Shown here in pieces: positions 7,788 through 59,836 of a stretch of DNA of 64,000 nucleotides. Position 1 is the stretch's first letter, and each line of letters starts with the position of its first letter. Source of the stretch: Candidatus Coatesbacteria bacterium (GTDB taxonomy: Bacteria; JAFGND01). Under the pieces are notes generated by a model that was not told where the DNA came from, made no database searches, and was given only the letters and a program-made list of their open reading frames with translations. The position numbers were made by a program, and so were the translations under genes. The DNA lies in assembly GCA_016927185.1 (NCBI GenBank), contig JAFGND010000035.1, positions 11,887-75,886 of the forward strand. The letters are read 5' to 3'.

Positions 7788-7883
7788 CAAAGTGAAAAGG
7801 CTTTTTGAGTAAAGTTTTGTCAAGAGGCTAATTTACTTGACATAAACCATATATAGACTTGGAGTATAGCAAGTATTGATAAT

Positions 7884-13214: not shown

Positions 13215-14660
13215 ATGTTTTCTGATACCATCAACAAGAGTGATTTATTATTCAAGGGATTGGTAGCATCTTTTCAGGATATTGCACTGCAAGGACTAGG
13301 CAAGGTTGCAAGTCATCACAGTGGAAAGATAGAGATAAATCTTGATGAAGCTTCATATGCCATAGATACATTAACAATGCTTCAGGAAAAAACAGTTAAT
13401 AATTTAAAGGAGGAGGAAGCCAGAGAACTTAATTCCCTGATTCACTATCTCAGAATGAATTATCTTGATGTATTGAAAGAAAACCAGAAGGATTCTGGAA
13501 ATAGCAGGAATTCTGAAGATACCAAACCTAACAATACAAATAATACTGAGAAGAAAGAGAATGAAATGAAAAGAACTCCATTTTATAAATTTCATAAGGA
13601 GATGGGAGGCAAACTGGTTCCGTTTGCTGGATTTGAGATGCCAGTCCAGTATGAAGGCATAAATCAGGAGCATTTGCATGTAAGAAATAAGGTTGGTGTT
13701 TTTGATGTTTCGCATATGGGTGAATTCTATATAAAAGGGGAGGATGCAGAGAAATTTGTTTCATATATTACCTGTAACAATCCTGAAGAGCTGGGTCCCC
13801 ATGGTGTCCAATATAGCGCATTTACAATGCCTCATAGTGGTCTGGTTGATGACCTGCTTGTATATAAAAGATCAGATGGCTTTCTTCTGGTTGTAAATGC
13901 AGCTAACATAGATAAAGACTGGCAATGGGTAAACAAGCAGAAAGATGGTTTTAAGGTAGAACTGGAAAATATAAGTGATAAAACAGCACAACTTGCTATC
14001 CAGGGACCTTTAGCTGAACCATTGACTGAAAAACTTACTGGATTAAAACTAACTGAAGTTCCTTTCTATGAATCTCGGGATTTCAAGATGTATGGCGAGA
14101 ACGTACTTCTTTCAAGAACTGGTTATACGGGCGAAGATGGATTTGAACTGTATTTCTCTCCTGAAATTGCAGATAAAGTATGGAGTGATTTATTTGAGGC
14201 AGGGAAGGAGTTTAATCTGAAACCGATAGGTCTAGGTGCAAGGGATTCCCTAAGACTTGAGATGAAATACTGTCTTTATGGGCATGATATTGACGAGACA
14301 ACATCTCCACTGGAAGCTGGTCTTGGGTGGATTGTCAAGCTTGATAAAGGTGATTTCATAGGCAAGGAAGTCCTGCTGAAGCAGAAAGATGAGAAACCAA
14401 AAAGGAAGCTTGTCTGCATCACAATGCTGGATAAGGCAATTCCAAGACAGCATTACAAGATTCTGTCGGTTATCAAGGAGGATATAGGTGAGGTTACAAG
14501 TGGCATAATGTCTCCTTCGCTTAACAAAGGCATAGCACTAGGTTATGTAAAGACTGAGTATTCAAAAATCGGTAATAAGGTTTTAATAGAAATAAGGGAT
14601 AAGCATTTTGAAGCGGAAATTGTAAAACCGCCATTTTGGAAAAGTGGATCACATAAGTAA
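13215..14660 (+). CDS. gcvT: Glycine cleavage system T protein (aminomethyltransferase) with an unusual 117-aa N-terminal extension
   Basis: The GcvT core begins at M118 (13566: MKRTPFYKFHKEMGGKLVPFAGFEMPVQYEG...). The ORF is open from ATG 13215, which is preceded by a strong Shine-Dalgarno sequence (GGGAGG-5nt-ATG). Confidence 0.8.
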   Translation: MFSDTINKSDLLFKGLVASFQDIALQGLGKVASHHSGKIEINLDEASYAIDTLTMLQEKTVNNLKEEEARELNSLIHYLRMNYLDVLKENQKDSGNSRNSEDTKPNNTNNTEKKENEMKRTPFYKFHKEMGGKLVPFAGFEMPVQYEGINQEHLHVRNKVGVFDVSHMGEFYIKGEDAEKFVSYITCNNPEELGPHGVQYSAFTMPHSGLVDDLLVYKRSDGFLLVVNAANIDKDWQWVNKQKDGFKVELENISDKTAQLAIQGPLAEPLTEKLTGLKLTEVPFYESRDFKMYGENVLLSRTGYTGEDGFELYFSPEIADKVWSDLFEAGKEFNLKPIGLGARDSLRLEMKYCLYGHDIDETTSPLEAGLGWIVKLDKGDFIGKEVLLKQKDEKPKRKLVCITMLDKAIPRQHYKILSVIKEDIGEVTSGIMSPSLNKGIALGYVKTEYSKIGNKVLIEIRDKHFEAEIVKPPFWKSGSHK

Positions 14661-41506: not shown

Positions 41507-43360
41507 ATGAAAAGAGTAATATCAACTAGTCTTTTCTTTTTGTTCTTCTTATTTTTGATTGATTTGAAATTATTATCAGCGATAGATTGGGAACTTTACA
41601 AGACAAGAATTGATATCAAGAAAAACAATAAAAAATGGACTGCATGTGAAACAAGTATTTCAAGATTGCCAGAAGAAATCAGGGAATATTGTCTTGGGGG
41701 GATAAAAAGAAGTCCAATTGATTTGACAGATGGCAATGAATTTAAAAGTTCCGGGAAATTTCCTGAAAAATTTGACTGGAGAAATGTAAATGGAAGGAAC
41801 TTTACTACTCCAATAAAGGATCAGAAAAATTGTAAAGCTGACTGGGCATTTGCAACATTTGCTGCTGTTGAAACTCAGATAAAAATATTCCTTGATCAAG
41901 ACTTGATAATGCCTGATTTATCTGAGCAATACGTTGTTTCAACTACTTTTACTAAAGGAGATTGCTCTGGTTGTGGATTTTATGAACTAGCTGAATGGAT
42001 GAAAACAAATGGTGTTGTCTGGGAATCATGTTTTCCATACGAAGCAAGAAATGCCAACTGAAGTGAGAGATGCACTGACTGGGCTTACTGTCAGCAGACC
42101 ATTTCACAGTTAACAAGAGTTCCTTCAGCAAATAACAATTTTGATTTAATGAAGGAAGCAATTGCAACAAAGGGTCCTGTTTTTGCTATGATGAAGTTTT
42201 TTAATGATTTCCAGTATTACAAAGGTGGAATATATGAATGTAATGAGAATTCTGGATACTTAGGTTTGATATCTGTTTGTTTAATAGGTTATGACAATTA
42301 TAGTAATTGCTGGATAGGGAAAAACAGCTGGGGAACTGAATGGGGTGAAAAGGGCTATTTCAGATGTAGAATAGGAGGAGCCGATAGTTTAGGTAATTTA
42401 GGTCAAACATTTGTAGAAATAGCGGATGTAACAAATCATTTATGGTATATGACACCACTACCAGCAAGGTATTATGTTTCAGGTAAAAAAACCAATATTG
42501 AATGGCATAGTCTTGGTGTAAACAAGATCAATATCTACCTGTCAACTGATGGAGGCACTTCTTCTTCATGGACTGAAATCGTAAAAGACATGGATGCATC
42601 AAGTCAGACATATGAATGGATAATACCTGAAGTTGAATCCTCACAATGCAAGATAAAAATTATTGATAGTGAACATACAAGGGAAGGTTCTAAATGTTCA
42701 ATCGGGGCAGCTAAAACTGATGGAGTATTTGGAATAGGAAAAGAAAGATCTGTAAGATTGATTTATCCAAAAGGAGGAGAGACTTTTTATAATTCTCACA
42801 GATATTATATATATTGGGATTGTACCAAAAATGTTAGCAAGGTGAATATATATGGATCAACTGATGATGGTTCAACATGGCTTGAAGAAAAAGTCATAAG
42901 TAATGGAGAGGCACAAAAAAAATCCTTCTTATGGACTGTGGATACAAGGAAATTTCCTCCCACAACAAAAGGGAGAATGAAGATTACTGATACAGAATAT
43001 GAGATTGATGTAAATGATATTAATGATGATATATTTACTGTTTCAGATGAAATAATTGGATTCAACGATACAAAGCATAATAAGCATTTACCTGAAGAGC
43101 TTTCTTTGACAGCAGATCCAAATCCATGCAGAAACAGGTTATTGAATATAAGATTTTCTCTTCCTAAGAATACTTGCATAAGCATTAAAATAATTAATCT
43201 GATTGGAAAAACTGTCACAATAATTTTGGATAAAGAGAATTATGGAAAAGGGAATTATATAATCCACTGGCTTCCAATCAATCTAGCATCTGGTATTTAT
43301 TTCATAGAGATGAAATCAGAACAAAGAATATTGAATAAAAGTTTCTTGTTTGTAAAATAG
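41507..43360 (+). pseudogene. Secreted papain-like (C1) peptidase homologue with mutated catalytic dyad, interrupted by one in-frame TGA (42059-42061), plus a T9SS C-terminal domain
   Basis: Track ORFs 41507..42061 and 42149..43360 are in the same frame, separated only by a TGA. The joined translation aligns along the papain fold (DWR...TPIKDQ...CKADWAF ... FPYEARNAN*SERCTDWAYC ... KGPVF ... YYKGGIY ... NSWGTEWGEKGYFRC). The catalytic Cys is Asp (CKADW compared with CGSCW) and the catalytic His is Ile (LISVCLIGY). The C-terminus ends ...GIYFIEMKSEQRILNKSFLFVK, a T9SS CTD. Confidence 0.55.
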
Positions 43361-44322: not shown

Positions 44323-47300
44323 ATGAATTTGCCCAAACGTTCTGTTGCTTGGGTAATTTTGCTTTTCAGTTTAGCATTTGTTATTACTTGTGCAAGAGAT
44401 AATCCTTTTGATGAAAATGGAGATAGTTACAAAGGTCCTTATGATGTACCAAAACTTGAAACACCTGCCAATGGGGCTACACTTGAGAGGAATTCTACTA
44501 CTTTAACATGGAAACTGAATAATCCTTCTGGCATGAAAGTCAGATATGAAGTATATCTTGGTACTGATGGAAATTTATATAAAGCTAATCAAGGCTTTCT
44601 CGATAGTACATATTTTCAAGTCAGTAATTTGGAGCCTGATGAGAAATATAGATGGCAGATAGTTGCTATAAGCGAAAGAGAAACTAATGAGAAAAGTGAT
44701 ATTTGGGAATTCACAAGCGGAAGACAAGCAGAAAATCAATCTCCGATTATTGAAATTACAAATCCAGGGGATCATGATGCATATGCAGTAACATATTTTG
44801 ATATAAGCTGGTACAGCGATGATCCTGATGGAGATACTTGTACTGTTACATTGAAGTATGATAAAGACAAGAATCCAAACAATGGATTTGAAGGAACTAT
44901 AATCGAGAATTATCCTGACAGGAAAGAATATAGATGGGATGTATCAAGTGTTCCTGAAGGGGGTTATTATATATACGCATTGATTGATGATGGAAAAAGC
45001 ACGAGATCCATAAGACCTGTAACAATCAATAATATTAAATCTCAAAATGTAAATTTGAAAAGTAATCTTAATAAAAAGGAAGTTGTTAATGAAATAAATG
45101 TCTTGAAGGATGGAAATGTAAGTAACCTTAACTATAAAAGAGGTAAACTCAATCCAACCAGAGCAATCCTAACACCTAAAAACAATACTGGTAATATTTC
45201 AACAGATATTAAAACCCCTGATAAAATTGGACTTACTGGAGAAAACTACAGTAATTCAAAGGTTATTGTTGACAGATCCAACAAGAATCACCCTCCAAAT
45301 CCACCTTATAATCCAAATCCCCGCGATGGATCAAGTAATAATGCTTTACAGCAGAGCTTGAGGTGGGATTGTGAAGATCCTGATGGGAATGATCTGACAT
45401 ATGATATTTTCTTTGGAAGAGAAGGGGATATGGTTAAGGTAGCTGACAAAGTACCTAATAAGAATTATGAAACTCAGAAACTTACCAAATCTACATCTTA
45501 TAAATGGCAAATTATTGCCTTTGATTCAAGAGGAGATTCAACTATTGGAAGAGTATGGACTTTTACTACAACAAATGCAGATTTTGAAGCATATGATCCT
45601 GATCCAGAAAATAATGCAATAGGTATTCCTCTTGATAAGTTTGTTTCATGGGATTGCAATGACATGAATGCAACATTTGATGTTTATATTGGAACTTCCC
45701 AGAATCCACAACGTCAATCAAGAAGACAATCGGATAAGGAATACGATCCAGTACTGGAACCGGATACAACTTATTACTGGAAAATAGTATCATTCTCTTC
45801 TGGAGATAGCATTACAGGACCATTATGGAGTTTCAGGACAAAAAGAGCCAATAATCATCCTCCTAATCCTCCTTATGATCCAGATCCCGAGAATAACGCT
45901 ACAGATATTCCATTGAACAAGGCAATGACATGGAAGTGTGAAGATCCAGACTCATTTGAAATGGGAGGTCTTCTTGGACAATCTTTGAGAAAAAACAGAA
46001 GGTATTTGAACAATGATCTTGATCAGAGAGATTCACTCTGGTATTCCGTTTATTTTGGAACAACATCCAATCCAGAATATGTCGGGAAAGTGGAAATAGC
46101 ATTTTACAAACCTCCTGAGGATCTTTCTTCAAATACAAAATATTATTGGAGAATAGTAGCGCATGATTCTCAAGGAGATTCTGCTAGTGGATCACTATGG
46201 AATTTTACAACAGGGACTCAGCGGGAATTATGGATAAGGGTAACAAAACCACCTGCTGGTGGAGCTGAAGCAGATTCATTATATACAATAGAATGGGAAT
46301 ATGATGCTCCAGGAAGTTCTTCTCCAAAAGTCAGCTTATATTATGATACTGATTCTACTCAAAACGCTAATGAAGTTTTAATAAAAGAAAATATACTGGC
46401 TCAGGATAAAGCTTATACATGGAATTGCAAGGAAATACCTGAGGGTTCATATTATATTCTGGCAATAATTGATGATGGCTTGATGAAGACAAGCAGATAC
46501 TATCTTAAGAAATCAAGTATCATAGATATAACAAAACCTATTAAAAAGCTTTTGAAGCCAGAAACTTCATTTGATTATTCTGATGGAGCTCTTAAATTAC
46601 AGCATTATACAAAACCGGGAATAACAATAACTCAACCTCCTGCAGAAGGGGCAACTGCTGATTCTGTCTATAGAATTGAATGGACATATAACACATATGA
46701 AGGAACTTCCCCAATTGTATATCTCTATACGGATAATGATTCAATTCCTGGAGGAGAAGTCCTGATACAAGCTGCTATCCCTACAGATAGTTTAGGATAT
46801 ACTTGGAATTGTGATTCTATGCCTAATGGCTCATGGTATATTAAAGGGGTGATTGATGACAGGCATACTGGAAAAACAACCAGGATTATCTTCAAATTGC
46901 ATAACAACGTGGCAAGACCTGATACTACTTATGACTATTCAGACGGAAAATTGACTATTGATCATGGTTATTATACACCTCCAACAATAACAGTTACAGA
47001 TCCTCCCGAAGAAGGGGCAACTGCTGACAGTACATATACAATAAAGTGGAATTTTTCAGCTAGCCAGGAAACCTCACCAGTTGTAGATCTTTATTATGAT
47101 AGTGATAATCAAAGGAACGGAAATGAAGTATTAATTCAAACAGAAATTCCTGCAGATAGTCTTGAGTATGAATGGGATTTGACAGGTCTTTCAGAAGGAT
47201 CATATTATGTATTGGCAGTAATTGATGATAAACATACTTCTTCATTCAAGTACTTACCAAAGAGGTTTATAGCAAAACCAGATTCTTCATTTGACTATTC

Positions 47301-49344
47301 TGATGGAACATTAACTGTTAGACGCTATACTCCACCTAATATCACTATAACAAGACCTCCCGCTCAGGGAGCAACAGCAGATACTTCTTATACGATAGAA
47401 TGGACTTATTCATCTTATCAAGGTACTTCCCCGATAGTCAATCTTTATACTGATAATGATGTATCTCCTGGAGGAGAGGTTTTAATAAGAGGTTCTATTC
47501 CTGCTGAAGAACTACTTTATACATGGAAATGTGATAGTATGCCCAATGGATCGTGGTATATCAAGGGAGTAATAGATGATGGATATACTAAGAAAACCTT
47601 TATATTGAATAAGACGAGTAAGTTTTTCAATTTCAGTCAGATTGTCAATAATATTGCCAGACCTGATACTGCTCATGATTACTCAGATGGTAGATTGACA
47701 ATAGATCATTACTATTATACGCCTCCAACTATTACAATAACGGCACCTCCAGCAGATAATGATACAGCTGATGCTTCTTATACAATAAGATGGAATTATT
47801 CTGCTTCGCAAGGAATGGAACCTGTAGTGGATTTATATTATGATTCAGATAATGTAAGAAATGGCAATGAGACCTTGATATCTTCAGGTATTCCTGCAGC
47901 TGATATCTCTTATGACTGGAATATCTCAAGTATGACAGAAGGAGATTATTACATTTTAGGTGTTATAGATGATGGTTATTCTAAATCAAGTAAATACTTG
48001 ATGAAAAACAGAATTGCCAGACCAGATAGTTCATTGGATTATTCTGATGGAACTTTGACTATTCTGCATTATATGCCTCCATCAATCATGGTAACAAGAC
48101 CTCCTGCTCAAGGGGATAGTGCGGATCTCAGCTACAGGATTGAATGGAATTATACCTCATTTCAGGGGACTACTCCAGTAGTGAATCTCTATACTGATAA
48201 TGATAGATCTCCTGGGGGAGAGATACTGATTGCAAGTAATATTCCTGCAGCAAATCTTAATTATACCTGGTCTTGTGATTCAATGCCAGAATGTGAGATT
48301 TATATAAAAGCTGTGATAGATGACCAGAGAACTACTAGTTTTACCAGGAAATTAACTGATGAAAATGGAGTTATTAGTTTCAATGCTTTATTTGAAGGTT
48401 TCATAAAACATCCTGATACAGCTTATGACTATTCAGATGGTACTCTTGAAATAATTCATGCTGGAATGAAAAGAATGTTTACGGGACATACTGATGAAGT
48501 CTATTCAGTAAGCATAAGTTCTGATAGATTATATTTCATGTCAGCAAGTTTAGACCGGACAGCAAGGTATTGGAGAATTTCTGACGGTTCAACAATAAGA
48601 AGTATATCTCATCCTGATGCAGTGTTAAGTGTTTGCATAAGCAAGGATGGAAATTTTGCATTAACTGGTTGTGCAGATGATTCTCTGAGATATTGGGAAT
48701 TATCGACAGGAAACCTGATAAGGACTTTTGGAGGAGATAACGGAAATGTTCTTTCTGTCGATATAAGCTCAAATGATCTTTATGCGGTTTCAGGCAATCA
48801 GAATAACAATGCTTCTTATTGGGATTTATCTACTGGTACGCTTATAAGGGATTTCACTGGTGGGCATACTTCTTATGTTAATCAGGCGAGATTCAGTTCA
48901 GATAGCAATTATATTATCACGGGTGGAGAAGACAATAGAATATGTCATTGGCAGGTGTCAAATGGTTCTCTCCTTGGAACTATGACTGGACATTCTCAAC
49001 CAGTTAATTCTGTCTTCTTGACAAGTGATAATATGTATGCATTATCAGGAAGTCAGGATAACACAGTAGGTTATTGGAATATATCCACTTATACAAATAT
49101 GAATTACTTCACAGGTCATACAAATTCGGTAAATTCAGTTTTTGTAACACCTAACAATAGATTTGTTCTTTCTGGCAGTAGTGATAACAGCTTGAGGTAT
49201 ATAGAAATATCTTCAGGAAACACTGTGAGAACTTTCACAAATCACACTGCTGCAGTCAATTCTGTTGAGATTAGTAATGATGGTAAATATGCTATATCTG
49301 GAAGTTCAGATAATACGATAATTTACTGGCGTTTACCATTTTAA
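44323..49344 (+). CDS. Giant (1673 aa) cell-surface lipoprotein: FN3-like modules, about seven ~115-aa tandem repeats and a C-terminal 7-bladed WD40 beta-propeller
   Basis: Lipoprotein-type signal (LAFVITC). Three HPPNPPY(N/D)P(N/D)P-prefixed FN3-like modules. Repeats carry the (A/K)RPD(T/S)xxDYSDGxLTIxHYxxPPxITxTxPPAxGATADxxYTIxWxY...SPxVxLYxDxDN...GxEVLI...YxWxCDSMPNGSWYIKGVIDD motif. The C-terminus has WD40 blades (GHTDEVYSVSISSD ... SGSSDNTIIYWRL). There is no T9SS CTD. Confidence 0.7.
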   Translation: MNLPKRSVAWVILLFSLAFVITCARDNPFDENGDSYKGPYDVPKLETPANGATLERNSTTLTWKLNNPSGMKVRYEVYLGTDGNLYKANQGFLDSTYFQVSNLEPDEKYRWQIVAISERETNEKSDIWEFTSGRQAENQSPIIEITNPGDHDAYAVTYFDISWYSDDPDGDTCTVTLKYDKDKNPNNGFEGTIIENYPDRKEYRWDVSSVPEGGYYIYALIDDGKSTRSIRPVTINNIKSQNVNLKSNLNKKEVVNEINVLKDGNVSNLNYKRGKLNPTRAILTPKNNTGNISTDIKTPDKIGLTGENYSNSKVIVDRSNKNHPPNPPYNPNPRDGSSNNALQQSLRWDCEDPDGNDLTYDIFFGREGDMVKVADKVPNKNYETQKLTKSTSYKWQIIAFDSRGDSTIGRVWTFTTTNADFEAYDPDPENNAIGIPLDKFVSWDCNDMNATFDVYIGTSQNPQRQSRRQSDKEYDPVLEPDTTYYWKIVSFSSGDSITGPLWSFRTKRANNHPPNPPYDPDPENNATDIPLNKAMTWKCEDPDSFEMGGLLGQSLRKNRRYLNNDLDQRDSLWYSVYFGTTSNPEYVGKVEIAFYKPPEDLSSNTKYYWRIVAHDSQGDSASGSLWNFTTGTQRELWIRVTKPPAGGAEADSLYTIEWEYDAPGSSSPKVSLYYDTDSTQNANEVLIKENILAQDKAYTWNCKEIPEGSYYILAIIDDGLMKTSRYYLKKSSIIDITKPIKKLLKPETSFDYSDGALKLQHYTKPGITITQPPAEGATADSVYRIEWTYNTYEGTSPIVYLYTDNDSIPGGEVLIQAAIPTDSLGYTWNCDSMPNGSWYIKGVIDDRHTGKTTRIIFKLHNNVARPDTTYDYSDGKLTIDHGYYTPPTITVTDPPEEGATADSTYTIKWNFSASQETSPVVDLYYDSDNQRNGNEVLIQTEIPADSLEYEWDLTGLSEGSYYVLAVIDDKHTSSFKYLPKRFIAKPDSSFDYSDGTLTVRRYTPPNITITRPPAQGATADTSYTIEWTYSSYQGTSPIVNLYTDNDVSPGGEVLIRGSIPAEELLYTWKCDSMPNGSWYIKGVIDDGYTKKTFILNKTSKFFNFSQIVNNIARPDTAHDYSDGRLTIDHYYYTPPTITITAPPADNDTADASYTIRWNYSASQGMEPVVDLYYDSDNVRNGNETLISSGIPAADISYDWNISSMTEGDYYILGVIDDGYSKSSKYLMKNRIARPDSSLDYSDGTLTILHYMPPSIMVTRPPAQGDSADLSYRIEWNYTSFQGTTPVVNLYTDNDRSPGGEILIASNIPAANLNYTWSCDSMPECEIYIKAVIDDQRTTSFTRKLTDENGVISFNALFEGFIKHPDTAYDYSDGTLEIIHAGMKRMFTGHTDEVYSVSISSDRLYFMSASLDRTARYWRISDGSTIRSISHPDAVLSVCISKDGNFALTGCADDSLRYWELSTGNLIRTFGGDNGNVLSVDISSNDLYAVSGNQNNNASYWDLSTGTLIRDFTGGHTSYVNQARFSSDSNYIITGGEDNRICHWQVSNGSLLGTMTGHSQPVNSVFLTSDNMYALSGSQDNTVGYWNISTYTNMNYFTGHTNSVNSVFVTPNNRFVLSGSSDNSLRYIEISSGNTVRTFTNHTAAVNSVEISNDGKYAISGSSDNTIIYWRLPF
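46240..48460 (+). repeat. Coding tandem repeat array (about seven diverged ~345-bp units) inside the giant lipoprotein gene
   Basis: A periodic ~115-aa protein motif is visible by eye in the translation (aa ~640-1380). Units are roughly 40-60 percent identical, so they are not recent exact duplicates. Confidence 0.5.
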
Positions 49345-49349
49345 TTAAT

Positions 49350-49382
49350 AGTCAGCAGGGATAACTGCTGACTATGCTTTTT
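49350..49382 (+). terminator. Rho-independent terminator of the giant lipoprotein gene
   Basis: Perfect 9-bp stem AGTCAGCAG / CTGCTGACT with loop GGATAA, followed by ATGCTTTTTACG. It lies 6 nt after the TAA. Confidence 0.7.
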
Positions 49383-49476: not shown

Positions 49477-50394
49477 TTGAACAGGAATGGAATGCGTGCA
49501 GTAAAAGACATTCTTTTATACTACTGTCCCAGGATAGATACAGCACTTAATGAGATATTAGCTATTCCTCCTTCTGAGGAGTTGAATTATCTATATGAGA
49601 GCATGAAATATAGTGTTATGGCTGGTGGAAAGAGGCTGAGACCTATTTTATCGCTTTTATCATATCTAAGCTTAAACAAAAAAGAAGAAGAGAAATATAT
49701 ACCACTTCTTTGCAGTCTTGAATTAGCTCATACTTATTCCCTGATACATGATGATCTTCCATCAATGGATAATGATGATTTAAGGCGTGGAAAAGCAACT
49801 AATCATAAGGTATTTGGAGAAGGCAATGCAATTCTGGCTGGTGATGGGCTGTTAACTCTTGCATTCGAGAATATTGTAAGAAGTGGATGGAAAGCCGGAT
49901 TAAAAGACAGATGTATATTGAATATTATTATATGTTTTTCTGAAGCAATTGGTCCTGATGGTATGGTTGGTGGACAATCAATGGATCTGGCAAGTGAAAA
50001 CAAAATTATAAATGATTTGGATGTTATTAAATCTATACATCTTAACAAAACTGCAAAATTCCTGTCCGCAGCCTCTGTTATAGGAGGCTTGATAGGAGAT
50101 GCTAATGAAGAACAATTGGAAGCTTTGAGAAAATACGGGGAGAAAATTGGTCTAGCTTTTCAAATTATTGATGATATTCTTGATTTAATAGGAGATGAAA
50201 AGACTATTGGAAAGCCAATAAAATCGGACATTAACAAAAACAAAGCAACATATCCTTCAATAGCAGGTTTGGATGAAAGCAGAAAATTGGCATCTATTGA
50301 GATTCAACAGGCAAAACAAGCACTTACTTTACTGCCAGGAGATACTGGTGATTTGGTTTCATTAGCTGATTTCATTTTGGAAAGATCAAAATAA
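49477..50394 (+). CDS. ispA: Polyprenyl diphosphate synthase (farnesyl/geranylgeranyl diphosphate synthase)
   Basis: FARM LIHDDLPSMDNDDLRRG and SARM FQIIDDILD motifs. Confidence 0.8.
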   Translation: MNRNGMRAVKDILLYYCPRIDTALNEILAIPPSEELNYLYESMKYSVMAGGKRLRPILSLLSYLSLNKKEEEKYIPLLCSLELAHTYSLIHDDLPSMDNDDLRRGKATNHKVFGEGNAILAGDGLLTLAFENIVRSGWKAGLKDRCILNIIICFSEAIGPDGMVGGQSMDLASENKIINDLDVIKSIHLNKTAKFLSAASVIGGLIGDANEEQLEALRKYGEKIGLAFQIIDDILDLIGDEKTIGKPIKSDINKNKATYPSIAGLDESRKLASIEIQQAKQALTLLPGDTGDLVSLADFILERSK

Positions 50395-50402
50395 CAGGAG
50401 AC

Positions 50403-52292
50403 ATGGTGGAGAATATCAACTATGAGAAAATTGGTTTCCAGGCGGGATTAGAAATTCATCAGCAGTTACTCACAGATTTAAAGCTTTTCTGTCATTGTCC
50501 TTCATATATCACGAATGAAAAATGTGATGCAGAGATTGTAAGACATATGCGTCCAACTCTTTCAGAATTAGGTGAATATGATGGAACTGCACTAATGGAA
50601 TTTAAGACAAAAAAGAGAATAACCTATCAGCTTTACCATAAATATACATGTACATATGAGATGGATGACACACCTCCATTTCTTCTCAATCAACAAGCTC
50701 TTGATATTGCATTAGAAATAGCAGTTTTACTGGGGTGCTCTATAGTGGATGAAATCCATATTATAAGAAAACAATACCTTGATGGATCAATCCCTACCGG
50801 ATTTCAGAGAACAGCAATAATAGGAGTTGAAGGCTCAATACCATACAGGAACAAGAATATAAGGATAATACAATTGGGTTTGGAAGAAGATTCATGCAGA
50901 GAAGTAAAAGATGTTGGACATGATATAGTATTCAAGACTGATAGATTGGGAATTCCACTAATAGAAACAGTTACATATCCTGATATGTTGACTCCAAAAG
51001 AAGCAGGAGAAGTTGCTGCTTTAATAGGTGATATTGTAAGAGTGACACAAAAGGTTAGAAGAGGCATTGGAAGTGTCAGACAGGATGTTAATGTCAGTGT
51101 TAATGGTGGAACAAGAGTGGAAATAAAAGGAGTGCCAAGAGTAGGTTTAATTCCTGAATTGACACACAATGAAGCAATAAGACAAGTAAATCTTCTTTCC
51201 ATTAGAGATAAACTGCTTTCAACTGGTATTAATTCAATTGCTTTCCAGACATTCAATATCCCTCCAAACTTAAGAAAAGCAAATGGATTTAAGATTTTCT
51301 TCAAGGAAGATGATTCAGTAAAAGGGATCAAACTTAATGGTTTAAAGGAAACACTTGAGAAGCCCACACAGCCTGGTCTCAGATTCAGGGACGAATTATC
51401 TGGAAGAGTAAAAGTCATAGCTTGCCTTGATAGAAAACCTAATATAATGACTGAAGCAGATCTGAGATCTTATAATATAACCGAGGATGTAATAAAGCAA
51501 TTGAAGGAACTCATGCAAATAAGTGACAGAGATGGTTTTGTAATAATCTGGGGTCCTAAAACTGATGTTGAAACAGGTATAAATGAAATCGTCATTAGAT
51601 GTGAAGAGTTGCTTAAAGGCATTCCCAGGGAAACAAGGCAAGCATTGAACAACGGTAATACTGATTTTGAAAGAATTTTACCAGGACCTGACAGGATGTA
51701 TCCTGATACTGATCTGCCTCCAACAGTAATAAGCGAAGAAAGACTTAATAGAATTATTACCAATTTACCGGAACTTCCCTGGGCAAGGAGGAAATATCTG
51801 AGAGATCTTAGATTGCCTAATCATATGGTGGATTTACTAGTTTGTTCAATTTGGATGCCAGTTTTCAAAAAAATAGTAGAAGAGCTAGATATTAATCCGA
51901 TCCTGGTTGGGGTAGTTATTACTGAAATGCTAAAGAATTTAAAACGAAAAGGTTACGATACTAAAAACATAACCTCTGAAATGCTTTTTAATATTTTTGC
52001 ATCATATAAGGAAAAAGCTTTCAGTAAGGAAGCAATCCCGTTAATTCTATTGGAGTTTTGTCAGAAAAATCTGACCTTAAAAACAGTACTTGATAATTTG
52101 GGAATACAAATTGTATCAATAAATCTTGTTAAGATAATAATAAAAGATATCCTCGATAATGATACAAGGAATTACAAAGGAGATAACAGGAAGAAACTAG
52201 ATCATTTAATGGGAGAAGTAATGCAAAAGGTGAGGGGAAGAATAGATGGATCTATAGTATATAGATTGCTGGAGGGAGCTATTTATACCTAA
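50403..52292 (+). CDS. gatE: Archaeal-type glutamyl-tRNA(Gln) amidotransferase subunit E homologue (GatE-like)
   Basis: The N-terminus YEKIGFQAGLEIHQQL...LFCHCPS...RPTLSELGEYD...DDTPP...DGSIPTGFQRTAIIG matches the GatB/GatE cradle domain. A ~200-aa insertion (AspRS-like insertion domain) gives a total of 629 aa, typical of GatE and not of the ~480-aa GatB. The C-terminus is a GatB/YqeY-like helical tail (KLDHLMGEVMQKVRGRIDG). Confidence 0.55.
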   Translation: MVENINYEKIGFQAGLEIHQQLLTDLKLFCHCPSYITNEKCDAEIVRHMRPTLSELGEYDGTALMEFKTKKRITYQLYHKYTCTYEMDDTPPFLLNQQALDIALEIAVLLGCSIVDEIHIIRKQYLDGSIPTGFQRTAIIGVEGSIPYRNKNIRIIQLGLEEDSCREVKDVGHDIVFKTDRLGIPLIETVTYPDMLTPKEAGEVAALIGDIVRVTQKVRRGIGSVRQDVNVSVNGGTRVEIKGVPRVGLIPELTHNEAIRQVNLLSIRDKLLSTGINSIAFQTFNIPPNLRKANGFKIFFKEDDSVKGIKLNGLKETLEKPTQPGLRFRDELSGRVKVIACLDRKPNIMTEADLRSYNITEDVIKQLKELMQISDRDGFVIIWGPKTDVETGINEIVIRCEELLKGIPRETRQALNNGNTDFERILPGPDRMYPDTDLPPTVISEERLNRIITNLPELPWARRKYLRDLRLPNHMVDLLVCSIWMPVFKKIVEELDINPILVGVVITEMLKNLKRKGYDTKNITSEMLFNIFASYKEKAFSKEAIPLILLEFCQKNLTLKTVLDNLGIQIVSINLVKIIIKDILDNDTRNYKGDNRKKLDHLMGEVMQKVRGRIDGSIVYRLLEGAIYT

Positions 52293-53188
52293 TGAATATA
52301 ATTGTAGCAGTTGTAATATTTTTATCCGGAATTCTATATGCTTCTGAAGATATAGTTTTAAAGAATATCCTTAAAAAAGAAGTATCAGGCTATCAGGGTA
52401 TAGTAGGTATTTACTATAAAAATCTTAAAACAAGGAGTACAGTTGAAATAAATGCAAATACTCAATTTCCTGCAGCCAGCATAATTAAAATACCTGTAAT
52501 GATTGCCGCATTTGAAAAAATTAACAAGGGACAGGTGCAAAGAGACAAAAAAGTTACTATTACGAAAAAAGATGTAATTGGGGGAAGCGGTATTTTATAT
52601 AAACAAAGAAATCATGCTGTAGGTCAAGAACGCACTATACTTGATTTGATTACTTTAATGATAATCCTGTCTGATAATATGGCAACAAACAAGATAGTCA
52701 GGATTATAAGCAGGAATTATGTGAATTATATCTGTACAAAATATGGTTTATATAATACGAAAATGAATAGAATGATTTTGGATTTTGCTGCAAGAAATAG
52801 AGGCAGAGAAAACTGGACAACACCTAAAGATATGGGAAAAGCACTGGAGCTGATTCATTATAACAAAGTCTGCAATAGTAATATTTCGAGAGAAATGATG
52901 AGCATCTTGCTGCAACAAAAGATAAGAGGCAGGCTTCCTGGATTATTACCTGCTGGAACTCCAGTAGCTAACAAAACAGGAACTGAGAATTCAATTGTAG
53001 GTGATGTTGGAATTATTTACTCGCCTAAAGGTCCATATTTATGCTGCATTTTAATAAAAGGATTCCCTATAAACAGGTCTGGAAAAGCAAAAAGACAAAT
53101 TGCTGAATTATCCAAAATTATATATGATTACGTGATACAGGAGAAGAATAAATCTAATAAAGAGAACTCACAACTTATAAAGCATTAA
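52292..53188 (+). CDS. Secreted class A beta-lactamase-like serine hydrolase
   Basis: Signal peptide. SxxK (ASIIK), SDN (ILSDNMATN) and KTG (NKTGTE) motifs. The start overlaps the gatE-like stop (TAATG). Confidence 0.6.
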   Translation: MNIIVAVVIFLSGILYASEDIVLKNILKKEVSGYQGIVGIYYKNLKTRSTVEINANTQFPAASIIKIPVMIAAFEKINKGQVQRDKKVTITKKDVIGGSGILYKQRNHAVGQERTILDLITLMIILSDNMATNKIVRIISRNYVNYICTKYGLYNTKMNRMILDFAARNRGRENWTTPKDMGKALELIHYNKVCNSNISREMMSILLQQKIRGRLPGLLPAGTPVANKTGTENSIVGDVGIIYSPKGPYLCCILIKGFPINRSGKAKRQIAELSKIIYDYVIQEKNKSNKENSQLIKH

Positions 53189-53201: not shown

Positions 53202-54938
53202 ATGCCTGAATTTCATGATGGTATAGAATTAACAAAGCAAGGAAATACTCATAAGGAAGCTGGTGAATATGAAGAAGCTATCTCTCTATATTTGCAAGCC
53301 AGAGAGAAGCAACCCGATTATCCTGAAAGTTACTATAGTTTAGCACAAACTTATGAAATATTGGGTGAATATGATAAGGCAATTGAAGAATTTCAGAAAA
53401 CAATAGCAATAAAATCTGATCACAGGGAAGCTTATTGGAATCTGGCAGATTTGTTTCTTTTTTTAGGCAGAAATGATGATGCTGAGCAGGTATTACTAAA
53501 GCAAGTCAAGGTGAGGTCTGGATCAATTGAAGCAAAAATGGGTCTGGCTAATTTTTATAAAGAGCAGAATAAATTACAGAAGGCGATTGATACTTATACA
53601 GAGGCAGCTGCTCTTTGGTCTGAAGAAGACGAGCCTTTTCTCAGGCTTGGTTCAACATATATTGATATGGGGCAGATCCAATCGGCTCTTGCAATTTATA
53701 ATGATTTATTAAGCAGAAGACCTGAATCAATAAATATTAGATTGGCATTGGCAAGAGCATATATTCTTGATAAATCTTATGATAAAGCAAGAAAAGAATG
53801 TGGTATTGTTCCAACTATAGTTGATTCTGAAACAGGAAAGAATGTTGCCAGTAATTTACAGATTGTTGAAGCTGAGCAAATTTTGGCTGAAATTCTGGTT
53901 TCGGAAGAGCAACTTGATGATGCAATAAATCAATACAAGAAAGTACTTGAACTCAATCCCAATTCTGCAAAAGCTTACAAGGGACTGGGTAATGTTTATA
54001 TCGCTTTGGAAATAGTGGATCAGGCAGTAGAAATGTATGAGAAATCATTCGAACTAGATCAGAAAGATGTAGAAGTCTGCTGCAATCTAGGGGAATTCTA
54101 TTATGCATTCCAGAAGTATAATGAAGCAGTTGACAAACTGCAGCATGCTCTTGAACTTAATCCAAATCATCCAAGGGTTCTATATGATCTCGGTAATATA
54201 CATTATGACAGACAGGAATATGACCAGGCTATAGAATACTATAATAGAGCTCTGCGAGCTAAAAATACCCGTCTGGCTTTGATTTCAGTTGCTCTTGGAG
54301 CAATATACACTGAATTGGATAGATATGACGAAGCAATTACTCTTTTTGAGAAAGCACTTGAAGTAGACACAAGATGTGAAGAAGCCGTAATTGGTCTTGG
54401 TTCAATATATATAGGACAGAATGAATGGAAAAAAGCAACTGATTTGTATCAGAAATACTTGAATATCATCCCGTATAATCCACAATTATGGAATGATTTA
54501 GGGGTAGTATTCATTTCTACAAAGAAGTTTCAGAGGGCAGAGAAATGCTTCAAAACTGCCATAGAACTTGAACCAAGTTACTCCAGAGCGTGGAACAATC
54601 TTATACAAACATATTTCTATCAGAACCAGCTTGAAAAAGTGATTTCAACAGTAGATGAATACCATAAGATAGGTAGAGACAGATCTGATCTGTTGAGCAT
54701 ACAAGCAGCAGCCCTGATTACAAAAGGTGATTTCCTGAGTGCAGAGAAGATATTGCTTAAAGCCTTGAAAAGAGAGCCCAAAGAGGTTATTGCATGGAGG
54801 AATTTAGCTGTATTATACACCAGATGGGGAAAATATGATAAAGTTGTTAGTACATTGCAGGCACTTGAGAAAATTGAACCATATTTCAAGAATAATATTA
54901 GAAGGAGAATAGCTTTATTTAGGAAGATTATTAGTTAA
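53202..54938 (+). CDS. TPR-repeat protein (about 12 or more TPR units)
   Basis: Recurrent W-LG-Y-A-F-P consensus throughout, 578 aa. Confidence 0.7.
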   Translation: MPEFHDGIELTKQGNTHKEAGEYEEAISLYLQAREKQPDYPESYYSLAQTYEILGEYDKAIEEFQKTIAIKSDHREAYWNLADLFLFLGRNDDAEQVLLKQVKVRSGSIEAKMGLANFYKEQNKLQKAIDTYTEAAALWSEEDEPFLRLGSTYIDMGQIQSALAIYNDLLSRRPESINIRLALARAYILDKSYDKARKECGIVPTIVDSETGKNVASNLQIVEAEQILAEILVSEEQLDDAINQYKKVLELNPNSAKAYKGLGNVYIALEIVDQAVEMYEKSFELDQKDVEVCCNLGEFYYAFQKYNEAVDKLQHALELNPNHPRVLYDLGNIHYDRQEYDQAIEYYNRALRAKNTRLALISVALGAIYTELDRYDEAITLFEKALEVDTRCEEAVIGLGSIYIGQNEWKKATDLYQKYLNIIPYNPQLWNDLGVVFISTKKFQRAEKCFKTAIELEPSYSRAWNNLIQTYFYQNQLEKVISTVDEYHKIGRDRSDLLSIQAAALITKGDFLSAEKILLKALKREPKEVIAWRNLAVLYTRWGKYDKVVSTLQALEKIEPYFKNNIRRRIALFRKIIS

Positions 54939-54948
54939 GGAGGAAAAA

Positions 54949-55944
54949 GTGAAAGCAAAATGGATATATCCTTTAATAATGATTGTTTTTATGACATCAT
55001 GCTATGAGAATTCAACAACAGACACTGGGATTCCTCCTGGAAATATCACATTGAATAATGCAACAGATATAAAAGCAAGGGAAGCTAAACTGACATGGAC
55101 AAAAAGCAAGGGTGGTGGTTTCCAGAACTATCAGTTATATAGAGGAAACTCATCAGGAATAGATATTGATAATGATCTAGTTGGTATATTCTTTGACAGA
55201 GATACAACTGAATTTATTGATTCCAATCTATATCCTGAAACGAAGTATTATTATAAAATGCTTGTATCTGACGGAATAGGGAATACAGTATGGAGTAACG
55301 AAATATCATTAACAACTGCCAAAGATGATTCAGGAGGTAATGATTATACATCCATTTATGAGATACAGTTTACAGAGGATAGTTCAGGGGATTCTCCCTT
55401 GAAAGATCAGGTAGTTACAACTACCGGTATAGTAACTGCCAATTTCTCTGATGTTTCAGGGCATCAGTATATTTTTATAGGTGAAAAACCAGGAGGTCCA
55501 TGGAGAGGTCTTTGCATTTTTTCCAGGAATGCTTCGGAATATGATTGTGCAGAAGGTGATAGTATTGTTGTAAAAGGACAAGTACAAGAATTTAATAACT
55601 TTACTGAAATGAGTAATATTGAGGAGTTCACAGTAATAGAACAAGGGCACAGCATTCCTTTTTCACAGGTAACAACAGGTCAGATAAATGCAAGCAGTAG
55701 TGACGCAGAAAAGTACGAGAGTGTCCTGGTGACTACAGGACAAGTGACAGTAGTCAATCCTGATATGGGTTACGGAGAATTTTCAATTTCAGATGGAAGT
55801 GGAGAAACTATTGTTAACGATTATTTTCAGTTCTCATATACTCCTGTAAAAGATGATGTTTTGAATTATGTAAGGGGAGTTGTTGATTATAGTTACAGTG
55901 CTTATAAGATAGAACCAAGATCTGATGATGATATAGGCAAATAG
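54949..55944 (+). CDS. Lipoprotein with an FN3-like domain
   Basis: Lipobox FMTSC. The FN3-like segment is NITLNNATDIKAREAKLTWT...YQLYRG...ETKYYYKMLVSD. Confidence 0.45.
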   Translation: MKAKWIYPLIMIVFMTSCYENSTTDTGIPPGNITLNNATDIKAREAKLTWTKSKGGGFQNYQLYRGNSSGIDIDNDLVGIFFDRDTTEFIDSNLYPETKYYYKMLVSDGIGNTVWSNEISLTTAKDDSGGNDYTSIYEIQFTEDSSGDSPLKDQVVTTTGIVTANFSDVSGHQYIFIGEKPGGPWRGLCIFSRNASEYDCAEGDSIVVKGQVQEFNNFTEMSNIEEFTVIEQGHSIPFSQVTTGQINASSSDAEKYESVLVTTGQVTVVNPDMGYGEFSISDGSGETIVNDYFQFSYTPVKDDVLNYVRGVVDYSYSAYKIEPRSDDDIGK

Positions 55945-55945
55945 A

Positions 55946-56881
55946 GTGTTAATTCAACTCAAGTATCTTATTCAGGAAATGCGTCCAAAGCAATGGACAA
56001 AGAACCTTTTCATTTTTGCAGCTGCCATGTTTACGAGAAAACTTGATGATATAAATATTCTTAAATCTCTAGGAATTGGTTTTTTTGTATTTTGTATGAT
56101 TTCAGGAGTAATATATATAATCAATGACTGGATGGATAAAGAAAAGGACAAATTGCATCCTGAAAAACGCTATAGACCAATTGCTTCAGGACTTTTAAAT
56201 TCTCATTTTGCATTAGTTTCTTCAATATTGATTGCTGTTTTCAGCATTTGCCTTGCATGGATAACATTATCTCGATTAACTGTTTATGTTATTTTTTCAT
56301 ATTTATTAATTAATCTGCTATATTCTTTCTGGTTGAAGCATATCGTAATTGTGGATATAAACAATATAGCAATAGGATTTGTTCTCAGAGTATTGGGAGG
56401 AGTTGTCATCCTGAAGAAATTTACTCCAGCTATTGAGGCAAGCCCATGGTTATTACTCTGCACTTATTTTCTGGCATTGTTTCTTGCAGCTGCCAAGAGA
56501 AGGCATGAATTGCTATATATAGATTCTGGAGTAAATCACAGGAAATCATTGAAAGATTATAGTGAGGAGTTAATAGATTCGATTCTTTCAGTAGCTGCTT
56601 CAGCATCAATAATTTGCTATTCATTGTATACTGTTTTTATTGAATTCGCATTTCCAAAATTGAAATCCTCTCCAGAACCAATACATAATTTGTATTTTAC
56701 CGTTCCCTTGGTAGTAGTTGCCATTCTGAGGTATAAATTCCTGATTTTCAATAGACAAGAAGGAGGATCTCCTGAAAAAGTTCTTCTTACTGACAGGCCT
56801 CTGCAACTGGTTATATTTATCTGGGTACTTATGGTTGTAGGACTCGCTTACATGCAACCTTATGTCCAGGAAATGGAGTAA
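55946..56881 (+). CDS. UbiA-family decaprenyl-phosphate phosphoribosyltransferase-like protein (DPPR synthase homologue)
   Basis: Translation RPKQWTKNLFIFAA ... INDWMDKEKDKLHPEKRYRPIASG closely parallels the actinobacterial Rv3806c-type motif (RPRQWVKN ... NDxxDxxxDxxHPxKxxRPIAxG). The start may be GTG 55946 or ATG 55979. Confidence 0.55.
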   Translation: MLIQLKYLIQEMRPKQWTKNLFIFAAAMFTRKLDDINILKSLGIGFFVFCMISGVIYIINDWMDKEKDKLHPEKRYRPIASGLLNSHFALVSSILIAVFSICLAWITLSRLTVYVIFSYLLINLLYSFWLKHIVIVDINNIAIGFVLRVLGGVVILKKFTPAIEASPWLLLCTYFLALFLAAAKRRHELLYIDSGVNHRKSLKDYSEELIDSILSVAASASIICYSLYTVFIEFAFPKLKSSPEPIHNLYFTVPLVVVAILRYKFLIFNRQEGGSPEKVLLTDRPLQLVIFIWVLMVVGLAYMQPYVQEME

Positions 56882-56911
56882 AGGTTTTTAACAAGAGAAG
56901 GTTTCTCGATT

Positions 56912-57745
56912 TTGAAAATAATTAGAGAGATTAATGAAATTAGAAGGATTTGCAGAGACAAGAAGTCTTTAGGCTTTGTTCCTACAATGGGAGCTCTTCA
57001 CAAAGGTCATTTGAGTCTTGTTGAAACTTTACAAAAAGACTGCTATCCAATTGTTATGAGCATATTTGTTAATCCAAAGCAATTCGGCAAAAATGAGGAT
57101 TTTGCCAAATATCCCAGAGATCTTGAAATTGACATCAAACTGGCAGAAGAAGCCAAAGTAGATATGCTATTCATACCTTCTGAAGAAGATCTTTACCCAG
57201 ATGATTACAGAACCTATATAGATGTAGAAGAATTATCTGACAAGTTGTGTGGAAAATCAAGGAAAGGTCATTTTAAAGGTGTCACTACAATTGTATTGAA
57301 GCTGTTTAATTTAATAAAACCCAAAGTGGCTGCATTTGGTTGGAAAGATGCTCAACAAGGCATAATATTGAAACAAATGGTCAAGGATCTTAATTTAGAT
57401 GTAGAAATAAGAATGTGTGATATATTGAGAGATAGTGATGGTTTAGCTCTTTCCAGCAGAAACAACTATTTATCGAACGAGGAAAGAAAGAATGCTCTTT
57501 CAATTTCCCAAGCTTTGCAATTATCTTCAAAAATGTTTGCTTCAGGAGTGAGAGATTTTTCAGTTATAAAGAAAAAACTTGTTGAACATTTCAATAGTTT
57601 CAGTAATACTAATATAGAATATATAGAAGCTTTCAGGATAGAGAATCTTCAAGAGACAGATTTTCTTGAAAAAGGAGTTATAATTGCAATAGCTGCCAAA
57701 GTAGGGAAAACAAGATTGATTGATAATTGGCGGATAGGCGAGTAA
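56912..57745 (+). CDS. panC: Pantoate--beta-alanine ligase
   Basis: Translation SLGFVPTMGALHKGHLSLVE plus the rest of the PanC fold. The start codon is TTG. Confidence 0.85.
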   Translation: MKIIREINEIRRICRDKKSLGFVPTMGALHKGHLSLVETLQKDCYPIVMSIFVNPKQFGKNEDFAKYPRDLEIDIKLAEEAKVDMLFIPSEEDLYPDDYRTYIDVEELSDKLCGKSRKGHFKGVTTIVLKLFNLIKPKVAAFGWKDAQQGIILKQMVKDLNLDVEIRMCDILRDSDGLALSSRNNYLSNEERKNALSISQALQLSSKMFASGVRDFSVIKKKLVEHFNSFSNTNIEYIEAFRIENLQETDFLEKGVIIAIAAKVGKTRLIDNWRIGE

Positions 57746-59330: not shown

Positions 59331-59648
59331 ATGTCGAACAAAGTAAAAGTAACGGTTTATGGCACTGAGTACAATATTACCAGTGATGCTGATCCAGAAC
59401 ATATTTTAAGAATAGCCAAATACGTAGACCAACAAATGAAGAGAACTAGCGGATTAGTATCCTTTACTTCAACAACAAAGATTGCAATACTAACAGCTTT
59501 GAACATTGCCGATGAGTTGTATAGAGAAAAACTGCAGAACAGACATACTGCAAATGATCTTAATGAGAGAATTGGGATGATGGTTAAGAGTTTGGATGAC
59601 ATTTTAGAGAAATCTTCAACAAAAGAACCGATAAAGAAGAAGAAATGA
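59331..59648 (+). CDS. zapA: Cell division protein ZapA
   Basis: 105 aa. Translation KVTVYGTEYNITSDADPEHILRIAKYVDQQMKRT...ILTALNIADELY matches the ZapA family profile. Confidence 0.65.
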   Translation: MSNKVKVTVYGTEYNITSDADPEHILRIAKYVDQQMKRTSGLVSFTSTTKIAILTALNIADELYREKLQNRHTANDLNERIGMMVKSLDDILEKSSTKEPIKKKK

Positions 59649-59651
59649 TTT

Positions 59652-59836
59652 ATCCCTGCAGTGTTTGTGATGTTTCGGGTAATATTGAGATAACAGTTTG
59701 AAACTTGGGGATCTTTAAGTTTATATCTGTAGTGTTGAACCCTTTGTAAGGGATTACTGAACAGATAGACGGATACCCACCTGAGGTTTAGGTTTCAAAT
59801 TTCCGAACACACGGCACACGCGGGGATTTCTTTTGA
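59652..59836 (+). ncRNA. Candidate structured ncRNA (6S/SsrS-like?) between zapA and rny
   Basis: The 197-nt non-coding gap contains a 5' arm ATCCCTGCAGTGTTTGTGATGTTTCGG (59652-) and a 3' arm CCGAACACACGGCACACGCGGGGAT (-59827). These can form an imperfect ~20-bp closing helix (8 bp, 4 bp, 3 bp and 5 bp segments). The 3' arm is followed by TTCTTTTG. An internal helix AGTTTGAAACT/GGTTTCAAATT and a CCCTT-TGT-AAGGG hairpin are also present. Confidence 0.3.

Follow-up and report, generated by a model that had tools for sequence, protein, structure and literature searches.

A GatE homologue unlinked from gatD in a Candidatus Coatesbacteria genome

A 64-kb stretch of a Candidatus Coatesbacteria contig (JAFGND010000035.1; termed here the window, that is, the whole stretch of DNA that was analyzed) contains gatE, the gene for subunit E of Glu-tRNA(Gln) amidotransferase, a tRNA-dependent kinase and transamidase. 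On its 5' side lies a gene for a farnesyl/geranylgeranyl diphosphate synthase and on its 3' side a gene for a serine hydrolase of the class A beta-lactamase fold. Reviews describe GatDE, the amidotransferase in which GatE is paired with GatD, as a hallmark of archaea whose evolution went hand in hand with that of the archaeal A1-U72 tRNA-Gln (PMC2330236; PMC9499178), and a preliminary description of this locus, which took GatDE to be an archaeal enzyme, proposed either a horizontal transfer from archaea, with gatD elsewhere in the genome, or a repurposed GatE paralogue. The window gene is already named GatE in GenBank and the chemistry to be expected of its product is ordinary for a GatE; its unusual trait is the missing linkage to gatD.

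The gatE gene and its product

The product of gatE (Table 1) is 100% identical to MBN1232639.1, a protein from a Candidatus Coatesbacteria metagenome-assembled genome (MAG) that NCBI names GatE and whose start is placed in the NCBI record at a GTG (50406), one codon 3' of the ATG used here, giving 628 aa. It passes the cut-offs of both GatE equivalog models, with 592 bits versus 456 for NCBIfam NF003107 and 533.8 bits versus 319.55 for TIGR00134, whereas it falls far under the cut-offs of all six GatB equivalog models (176.7 versus 338 bits at best). It also aligns over nearly its full length to two solved archaeal chains: in phmmer searches residues 6-625 match M. thermautotrophicus GatE (2d6f_C; 389 bits) and residues 1-623 match P. 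abyssi GatE (1zq1_C; 386 bits). The profile check of GatE against GatB that the preliminary description called for is thereby decided for GatE, and its account of a GatE homologue with a cradle domain, an insertion domain and a YqeY-like tail stands. Of the insertion domain, given there as about 200 aa, the presence is confirmed but the size is not: relative to GatB the insertion comprises about 140-165 aa. The GatB models match the window protein at residues 95-266 and 431-624 only, and the Pfam GatB_N profile, of 277 positions, is stretched over residues 14-448 (435 residues). None of the marks of GatB--a score above the cut-off, the lack of the insertion domain, gatA and gatC as partners in the window--was found. 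By every sequence test applied, the window protein is a true GatE and not a long GatB.

The predicted Mg2+ ligands are His19 (50457-50459), Glu161 (50883-50885) and Glu188 (50964-50966), which occupy invariant alignment columns (122-123 of 123 sequences) and correspond to His15, Glu157 and Glu184 of M. thermautotrophicus GatE, for which the role of Mg2+ ligand has been described (PMC2330236). More broadly, none of the 52 invariant positions is changed in the window protein, and 144 of the 146 positions that are at least 97% conserved are likewise retained, the other two showing L>I and I>V. Measured to the outgroup, its distance (1.30, versus 1.31 ± 0.07 for the other members) indicates no rate acceleration. 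When 37 mutually divergent, gatD-linked GatEs serve as the reference, the window protein differs in 5 (2.8%) of the 179 conserved columns, which ranks it 25th of 40, the linked proteins ranging from 0 to 8.2%. An apparent sharing of such differences with the GatE of another unlinked locus, L027 (4 versus 0.9 expected), was rejected: 2 remained after an oversampled group had been thinned, and linked controls share 3-4.

Selection was gauged with the aid of a sister species, represented by a contig of another run (L010, from SRR21537128) that is 85.7% identical to the window at the nucleotide level and that holds the 3' 208 codons of gatE (91% amino acid identity). Over these codons the ratio of nonsynonymous to synonymous substitution rates (dN/dS) is 0.055 at a dS of 0.89 (Nei-Gojobori method); the corresponding ratios against L010 for the neighboring hydrolase and TPR genes are 0.048 and 0.044. 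L010 keeps the order gatE-hydrolase-TPR gene. Thus gatE is intact and under strong purifying selection, and the gene order is kept across two species.

Table 1. Coordinates of features at the gatE locus (window coordinates, unless another locus is named)
Feature	Position	Strand	Remarks
Terminator-like hairpin	49348-49375	+	11-bp stem followed by a T run; 3' of the upstream gene for a 1673-aa protein
Farnesyl/geranylgeranyl diphosphate synthase	49477-50394	+	First gene of the array; PF00348, 195 bits
gatE, Glu-tRNA(Gln) amidotransferase subunit E	50403-52292	+	629 aa from ATG
Cradle-domain stretch with three Mg2+-ligand codons (predicted)	50457-50966	+	123-sequence alignment
GatE-specific insertion domain, residues ~267-430	51201-51692	+	No GatB counterpart; aligns to 2d6f_C and 1zq1_C
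YqeY-like tail domain, residues 487-625	51861-52277	+	PF02637 (GatB_Yqey), 59.6 bits
Coupling junction	52271-52294	+	GGAGGGAG 52271-52278; gatE TAA 52290-52292; hydrolase ATG 52292-52294
Class A beta-lactamase-fold serine hydrolase (PBP-A/LRA-5-like)	52292-53188	+	298 aa; PF13354, 202 bits
Rest of co-directional array	53202-57745	+	Tightly packed; intergenic gaps 1-30 nt
TPR protein	53202-54938	+	Follows the hydrolase in L010 too
Fn3 protein	54949-55944	+
UbiA-family decaprenyl-phosphate phosphoribosyltransferase-like protein	55946-56881	+
PanC	56912-57745	+
tRNA-Gln(CUG)	L016:2474-2548		A1·A72 mismatch (canonical numbering)
tRNA-Gln(CUG)	L020:3429-3502		A1-U72 and A73, the archaeal identity read by GatDE

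Relatives of the window GatE and their linkage to gatD

The window contains no detectable GatD-like gene, as had been claimed: a tblastn search with two GatD proteins gave a best E value of 0.5, and Pfam scans of all window open reading frames of at least 100 aa revealed no asparaginase, amidase (GatA), GatB, GatC or glutaminyl-tRNA synthetase (GlnRS). The gatD-free span around gatE extends 50 kb upstream and 11.7 kb downstream, and in the sister species gatD is absent on the downstream side of gatE.

Among relatives, gatD adjoins gatE in 9 of 9 distinct loci that were fetched individually, distant Nanohaloarchaea included, and in 71 of 80 metagenome loci, where it lies directly downstream on the same strand in 63 (median gap 50 nt), divergently upstream in 7, and upstream on the same strand in 1. 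Most of the nine metagenome loci that do not show gatD are missing flanking sequence; only two of them have at least 6 kb on both sides, and among informative metagenome loci the figure is 71 of 73. The two exceptions, L027 (gatE at 6247-8187) and L035 (gatE at 9980-11920, on a 1.85 Mb contig), show no gatD in the 6-10 kb that flank gatE on each side and belong to a single bacterial lineage (with Por_Secre_tail proteins); these two loci also have upstream genes in common, one HemN-like radical SAM gene plus two unknowns. An unlinked gatE is rare (about 2 of 82 informative loci, ~3%) and is not unique to the window, whose gatE departs from an adjacency that is typical of the clade without strictly defining it. 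A scan of genome contigs with the window GatE, in a collection that does not include the source MAG, matched only two distant Nanohaloarchaea loci.

The premise that GatDE is confined to archaea fails in current sequence data. Pairs of gatE and gatD occur amid genes for a class A PBP, a sigma-70 factor, an M23 peptidase and a Por_Secre_tail protein (L003), among ClpB and GH2 genes in a context that is probably bacterial (L007), and, in an Ignavibacteriales MAG (L011), among genes for Por_Secre_tail proteins, an RND pump and ParE/RelB. When the L003 GatD served as the query, the matches listed included at least 120 with 79-99% identity, and the submitter names of GatD matches include Calditrichia/Calditrichaeota, Caldithrix abyssi, KSB1, Krumholzibacteriota, Aminicenantales, Bacteroidota, Ignavibacteriales and Kapaibacterium, so that, by submitter labels, named bacterial GatDs come from at least seven lineages (matches P0257-P0354). 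Among the searchable papers on GatDE since 2014, no report of GatDE in bacteria was found, and GatDE is not mentioned in the Caldithrix and Melioribacter genome papers.

Two further properties of these loci may be recorded. GatD is 75-87% identical among L003, L004, L007 and L009, the GatEs of which are separated by Kimura distances of 0.65-0.80; in these loci, that is, sequence conservation is much stronger in the glutaminase subunit than in the subunit that binds tRNA. Moreover, glnA, which encodes glutamine synthetase, adjoins gatD/gatE in four loci (L003:15245-16723, L004:11953-13257, L008:5005-6429 and L009:8239-9753), which places synthesis of the amide donor next to the amidotransferase.

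Clustering of the GatEs from 90 loci produced many groups in which gatE is followed by gatD on the same strand; one 49-member group holds the Ignavibacteriales locus. One tight group of 11 members, in which gatD and gatE are divergently oriented, holds all three Thermoplasmat*-labelled loci. Neighbors within this divergent group include genes for diphthamide synthase (L013) and geranylgeranyl reductase (L012), though a Pfam census of its flanks provides weak domain-level evidence (the diphthamide synthase in L013). One locus labelled 'Thermoplasmata archaeon' (L009; CP070751.1, GCA_020348445.1) is a single contig of 5.16 Mb, which is large for that label. The window GatE is a singleton that is 49-55% identical to every other GatE found. 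In neighbor-joining (NJ) trees it falls within a mixed clade of bacterial and Thermoplasmatota-labelled sequences in 100 of 100 bootstraps; inside this clade it groups in 44% with the P0101/P0111 subclade, to which the bacterial loci L003 and L007 belong, and in 23% it is sister to all others. It is a deep singleton within the clade, and its gene is fully ameliorated; these data do not show a simple, recent acquisition from archaea. As to the transfer that was proposed, the part that places gatD elsewhere is favored, while an isolated archaeal import is opposed by the mixed clade and by a host-like GC content at third codon positions (GC3; see below).

Regarding the tRNA substrate, no tRNA gene was found in the window. 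About 0.9 Mb of fetched loci contain nine tRNA genes, two of which encode tRNA-Gln(CUG) and lie 65-145 nt 3' of gatE (L016 and L020; Table 1). Both loci belong to the divergent, Thermoplasmatota-labelled GatE group, and neither tRNA has the bacterial U1-A72 pair.

The host, the gene array and the coupled hydrolase

The host is unmistakably bacterial, in agreement with the preliminary description. The window encodes lipid A acyltransferase, DNA polymerase III alpha, IF3, L20, RNase Y and ZapA, together with anaerobic ribonucleotide reductase, PanC, a bacterial-type lysyl-tRNA synthetase (LysRS), several proteins with type IX secretion system (T9SS) sorting domains, and 6S RNA. The order of diphosphate synthase, gatE and hydrolase genes recurs in a Logan assembly made independently (L006, from run SRR13394437), and the GC3 of gatE (0.262) is like that of dnaE (0.259) and of neighboring genes (0.24-0.28). 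Given these matching junctions and this host-like composition, the gatE locus is neither a chimera nor a recent arrival.

Several other features of the window are of interest in their own right. The LysRS (TIGR00499, 518 bits; 17395-19470, minus strand) is extended at its C-terminus by an additional HD phosphohydrolase domain (residues 528-600), and the glycine-cleavage T protein (13215-14660, plus strand) has DUF1844 fused at its N-terminus (residues 13-84). The 6S RNA (RF00013, 59.4 bits; 59331-59830, plus strand) lies directly 3' of zapA and downstream of infC-rpmI-rplT. A gene for a peptidase of the papain family (Peptidase_C1) that bears a T9SS sorting tail (41507-43360, plus strand) is interrupted by a single in-frame TGA (42059-42061; ARNAN*SERC), which may reflect a pseudogene, a sequencing error or recoding; a reading as selenocysteine was rejected, there being no match to a selenocysteine insertion sequence (SECIS) family and the hairpin downstream being non-significant (z-score -1.0).

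The gatE gene belongs to a co-directional array (Table 1). The strongest terminator-like site between 43000 and 60000 is the hairpin at 49348-49375, which is the probable 5' boundary of the gatE-containing transcription unit; the same scan revealed no comparable site between 49477 and 57745. Immediately upstream of this operon is the gene for a giant secreted protein of 1673 aa (44323-49344, plus strand), which contains numerous repeated Fn3-like modules and, at its C-terminus, a WD40 beta-propeller. Within the array, the diphosphate synthase scores 331 bits against NF045485 FPPsyn (cut-off 275), and its stop codon is 8 nt 5' of gatE. Because the array is functionally heterogeneous, the coupling of gatE to the hydrolase gene tells little about function.

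That coupling is nevertheless tight. As the preliminary description had it, gatE and the downstream gene overlap by 1 nt: the gatE stop codon and the hydrolase start codon share a nucleotide in the sequence acc TAA tg aat (TAAtg; 52290-52294), and a Shine-Dalgarno-like motif, GGAGGGAG, occurs 13-16 nt 5' of the hydrolase ATG. Both the motif and the overlap are identical in the sister species. A TAAtg overlap likewise joins gatE to gatD in the Ignavibacteriales locus L011, and the hydrolase gene can therefore be said to occupy the usual gatD slot.

The hydrolase is MBN1232640.1, which NCBI names 'serine hydrolase', and its best matches in the PDB are LRA-5 (8eo5) and PBP-A Tll2115 (2j7v), at 92-98 bits. 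Its motifs S63xxK66, S127DN129 and K228TG230 are invariant in a 16-sequence alignment. It scores below the NCBIfam cut-off for class A beta-lactamases (NF033103; 118.7 versus 200 bits), and the canonical omega-loop Glu166 is not assigned here, a conserved E-N being a candidate counterpart of Glu166/Asn170. Neither its Pfam matches nor its 208 PDB matches include a glutaminase, and it was not placed among the GlsA-type enzymes. The orthologue in L010 is 89% identical; beyond it, identity does not exceed 39%, in homologs from Armatimonadota, Firmicutes, Ignavibacteria and Margulisbacteria. The N-terminus is hydrophobic (MNIIVAVVIFLSGILYA|SED in the window, MSKIVIVIVFISGILCAAED in the L010 orthologue) and is followed by acidic residues; this hydrophobic segment is missing from many distant homologs. 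Because the conserved hydrophobic N-terminus and the acidic residues after it are as in exported proteins, the hydrolase is probably exported. It is an unlikely cytoplasmic partner of GatE and is probably unrelated to GatE function, which upholds the earlier view of a signal-bearing, class A beta-lactamase-like protein.

Interpretation and comparison with known systems

In the archaeal enzyme, the GatE cradle binds the acceptor end of Glu-tRNA(Gln) while the tail domain reads the D-loop, as it does in solved GatCAB; GatE phosphorylates the gamma-carboxyl group with ATP and Mg2+ and then amidates it, using ammonia that arrives from GatD through a 40 Å tunnel, and the solved GatDE is an α2β2 assembly on a GatD dimer (PMC2330236). 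Judged by its sequence, the window protein has everything needed on the GatE side. The explanation favored here, with a probability of about 0.72, is that it is a canonical GatE whose gatD is located elsewhere in the genome. The protein would bind Glu-tRNA(Gln), phosphorylate the glutamyl side chain with ATP and Mg2+ (through His19, Glu161 and Glu188) and amidate the activated intermediate to Gln-tRNA(Gln), its substrate presumably being the host bacterium's own Glu-tRNA(Gln) and its glutaminase partner an unlinked GatD. The gatE-gatD linkage would have been broken in the Coatesbacteria lineage, leaving the gene for an unrelated, exported hydrolase in the gatD slot.

Several observations weigh against this explanation. 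First, 80 of the 82 informative relatives have gatD next to gatE, so that the state of the window is a real departure. Second, gatD was not found within the reach of the data on this Coatesbacteria genome, which is the 64-kb window, nor is there a Coatesbacteria GatD among the best 120 GatD matches, although, these all being at least 79% identical to the query, that absence is uninformative. Third, GatDE reads the first base pair of tRNA-Gln, and the host's pair is not seen in the window. Fourth, the dN/dS of gatE rests on the 3' third of the gene only.

The alternative that survives best, though it is unlikely, is that GatD has been lost and that GatE alone uses free ammonia, as might be abundant in an ammonium-rich anoxic habitat, or an ammonia donor other than GatD. 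It would explain why no gatD lies within the span described above and why another gene fills the gatD slot in two species. Ammonium chloride restores a GatDE whose GatD is dead. The kinase and transamidase site, moreover, is situated wholly in GatE (PMC2330236). If GatD were gone, however, its interface and the tunnel entrance would be freed from constraint and should show excess departures at positions conserved in gatD-linked GatEs; there is no such excess, which counts against the loss. The α2β2 architecture on a GatD dimer also speaks against it, and unlinked genes are the simpler explanation. A true loss of GatD, with Gln-tRNA(Gln) made by way of free ammonia or of a non-homologous amide hydrolase (with the coupled beta-lactamase-fold enzyme as the most provocative candidate), is considered distinctly unlikely.

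It is very unlikely that the protein has been repurposed for another aminoacyl-tRNA or substrate, apart from Gln-tRNA(Gln) synthesis. A singleton lineage with at best 49-55% identity to its relatives, unlinked from gatD and sharing its operon with isoprenoid and envelope genes, could invite such a proposal, which was the second one made previously. It is disfavored by the retention of the invariant residues, the Mg2+ ligands and the tail domain, by the normal rate of evolution and the dN/dS of 0.055, and by an equivalog score of 592 bits; the operon neighbors (panC and the TPR gene among them) are heterogeneous, so that gene order carries little functional signal.

GlsA-type glutaminases have the beta-lactamase/PBP fold, and one may ask whether the coupled hydrolase has taken over, in situ, the role of GatD as the glutaminase subunit. 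The hydrolase gene lies in exactly the position of gatD, with an overlap of the L011 type that is kept in two species, and the product has intact SxxK, SDN and KTG motifs and a dN/dS of 0.048. This replacement is highly improbable nonetheless: the signal-like N-terminus, kept in the orthologue, implies export; among solved structures LRA-5 and PBP-A Tll2115 come closest, and no glutaminase is matched; and the homologs are scattered, with no gatE-linked copy seen except the 89% identical orthologue (the gene neighborhoods of the more distant ones were not inspected). An artefact, in which an archaeal fragment was misassembled or misbinned into a bacterial contig, is refuted: some of the nearest named GatE relatives do bear Thermoplasmatota labels, but same-strand bacterial genes flank gatE at 8 nt and -1 nt, the same junctions occur in two independent assemblies from different runs, and the GC and GC3 of gatE equal those of host genes.

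Apart from the window, current sequence data contain GatD/GatE pairs as a common feature of several bacterial phyla, a distribution that has apparently gone undiscussed. Bacterial carriers of GatDE constitute natural experiments on whether an archaeal-type tRNA-Gln is required, and they bear on the coexistence of GatDE with, or its replacement of, GatCAB and GlnRS, as well as on the question of GatDE ancestry versus inter-domain transfer. The window adds a rarer case--a gatE under strong selection whose gatD is unlinked or possibly absent--and hence a place to look for GatD-independent action; a GatD-less GatE, if real, would add a third type to the tRNA-dependent amidotransferases.

With the canonical GatE taken as the working explanation, four known systems offer comparisons. 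(i) Archaeal GatE (2D6F chain C and 1ZQ1 chain C) has the same cradle, insertion, tail and Mg2+ ligands as the window protein, which differs in its bacterial host and in having no adjacent gatD; the clade of the window protein is separated from the Methanobacteria/Nanohaloarchaea outgroup sequences in 100 of 100 NJ bootstraps. (ii) GatB of GatCAB has a paralogous cradle and YqeY tail and the same kinase/transamidase chemistry, but lacks the insertion of about 140-165 aa that the window protein carries; and, unlike in bacterial GatCAB systems, neither gatA nor gatC lies near the window gatE. (iii) PBP-A (Tll2115) and LRA-5 match the window hydrolase in their SxxK, SDN and KTG motifs, in size and in an N-terminal export-like segment, although the similarity is modest and the hydrolase is under the class A cut-off. 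(iv) The bacterial gatE-gatD loci (L003, L007 and L011) share with the window the GatE clade, a bacterial host and T9SS-type secreted proteins, their GatEs being 44-53% identical to the window protein over BLAST segments (alignment group means 0.44-0.52). In those loci, as in the window, a tightly coupled gene follows gatE on its 3' side: there it is gatD, and here it is the gene for a beta-lactamase-fold hydrolase.

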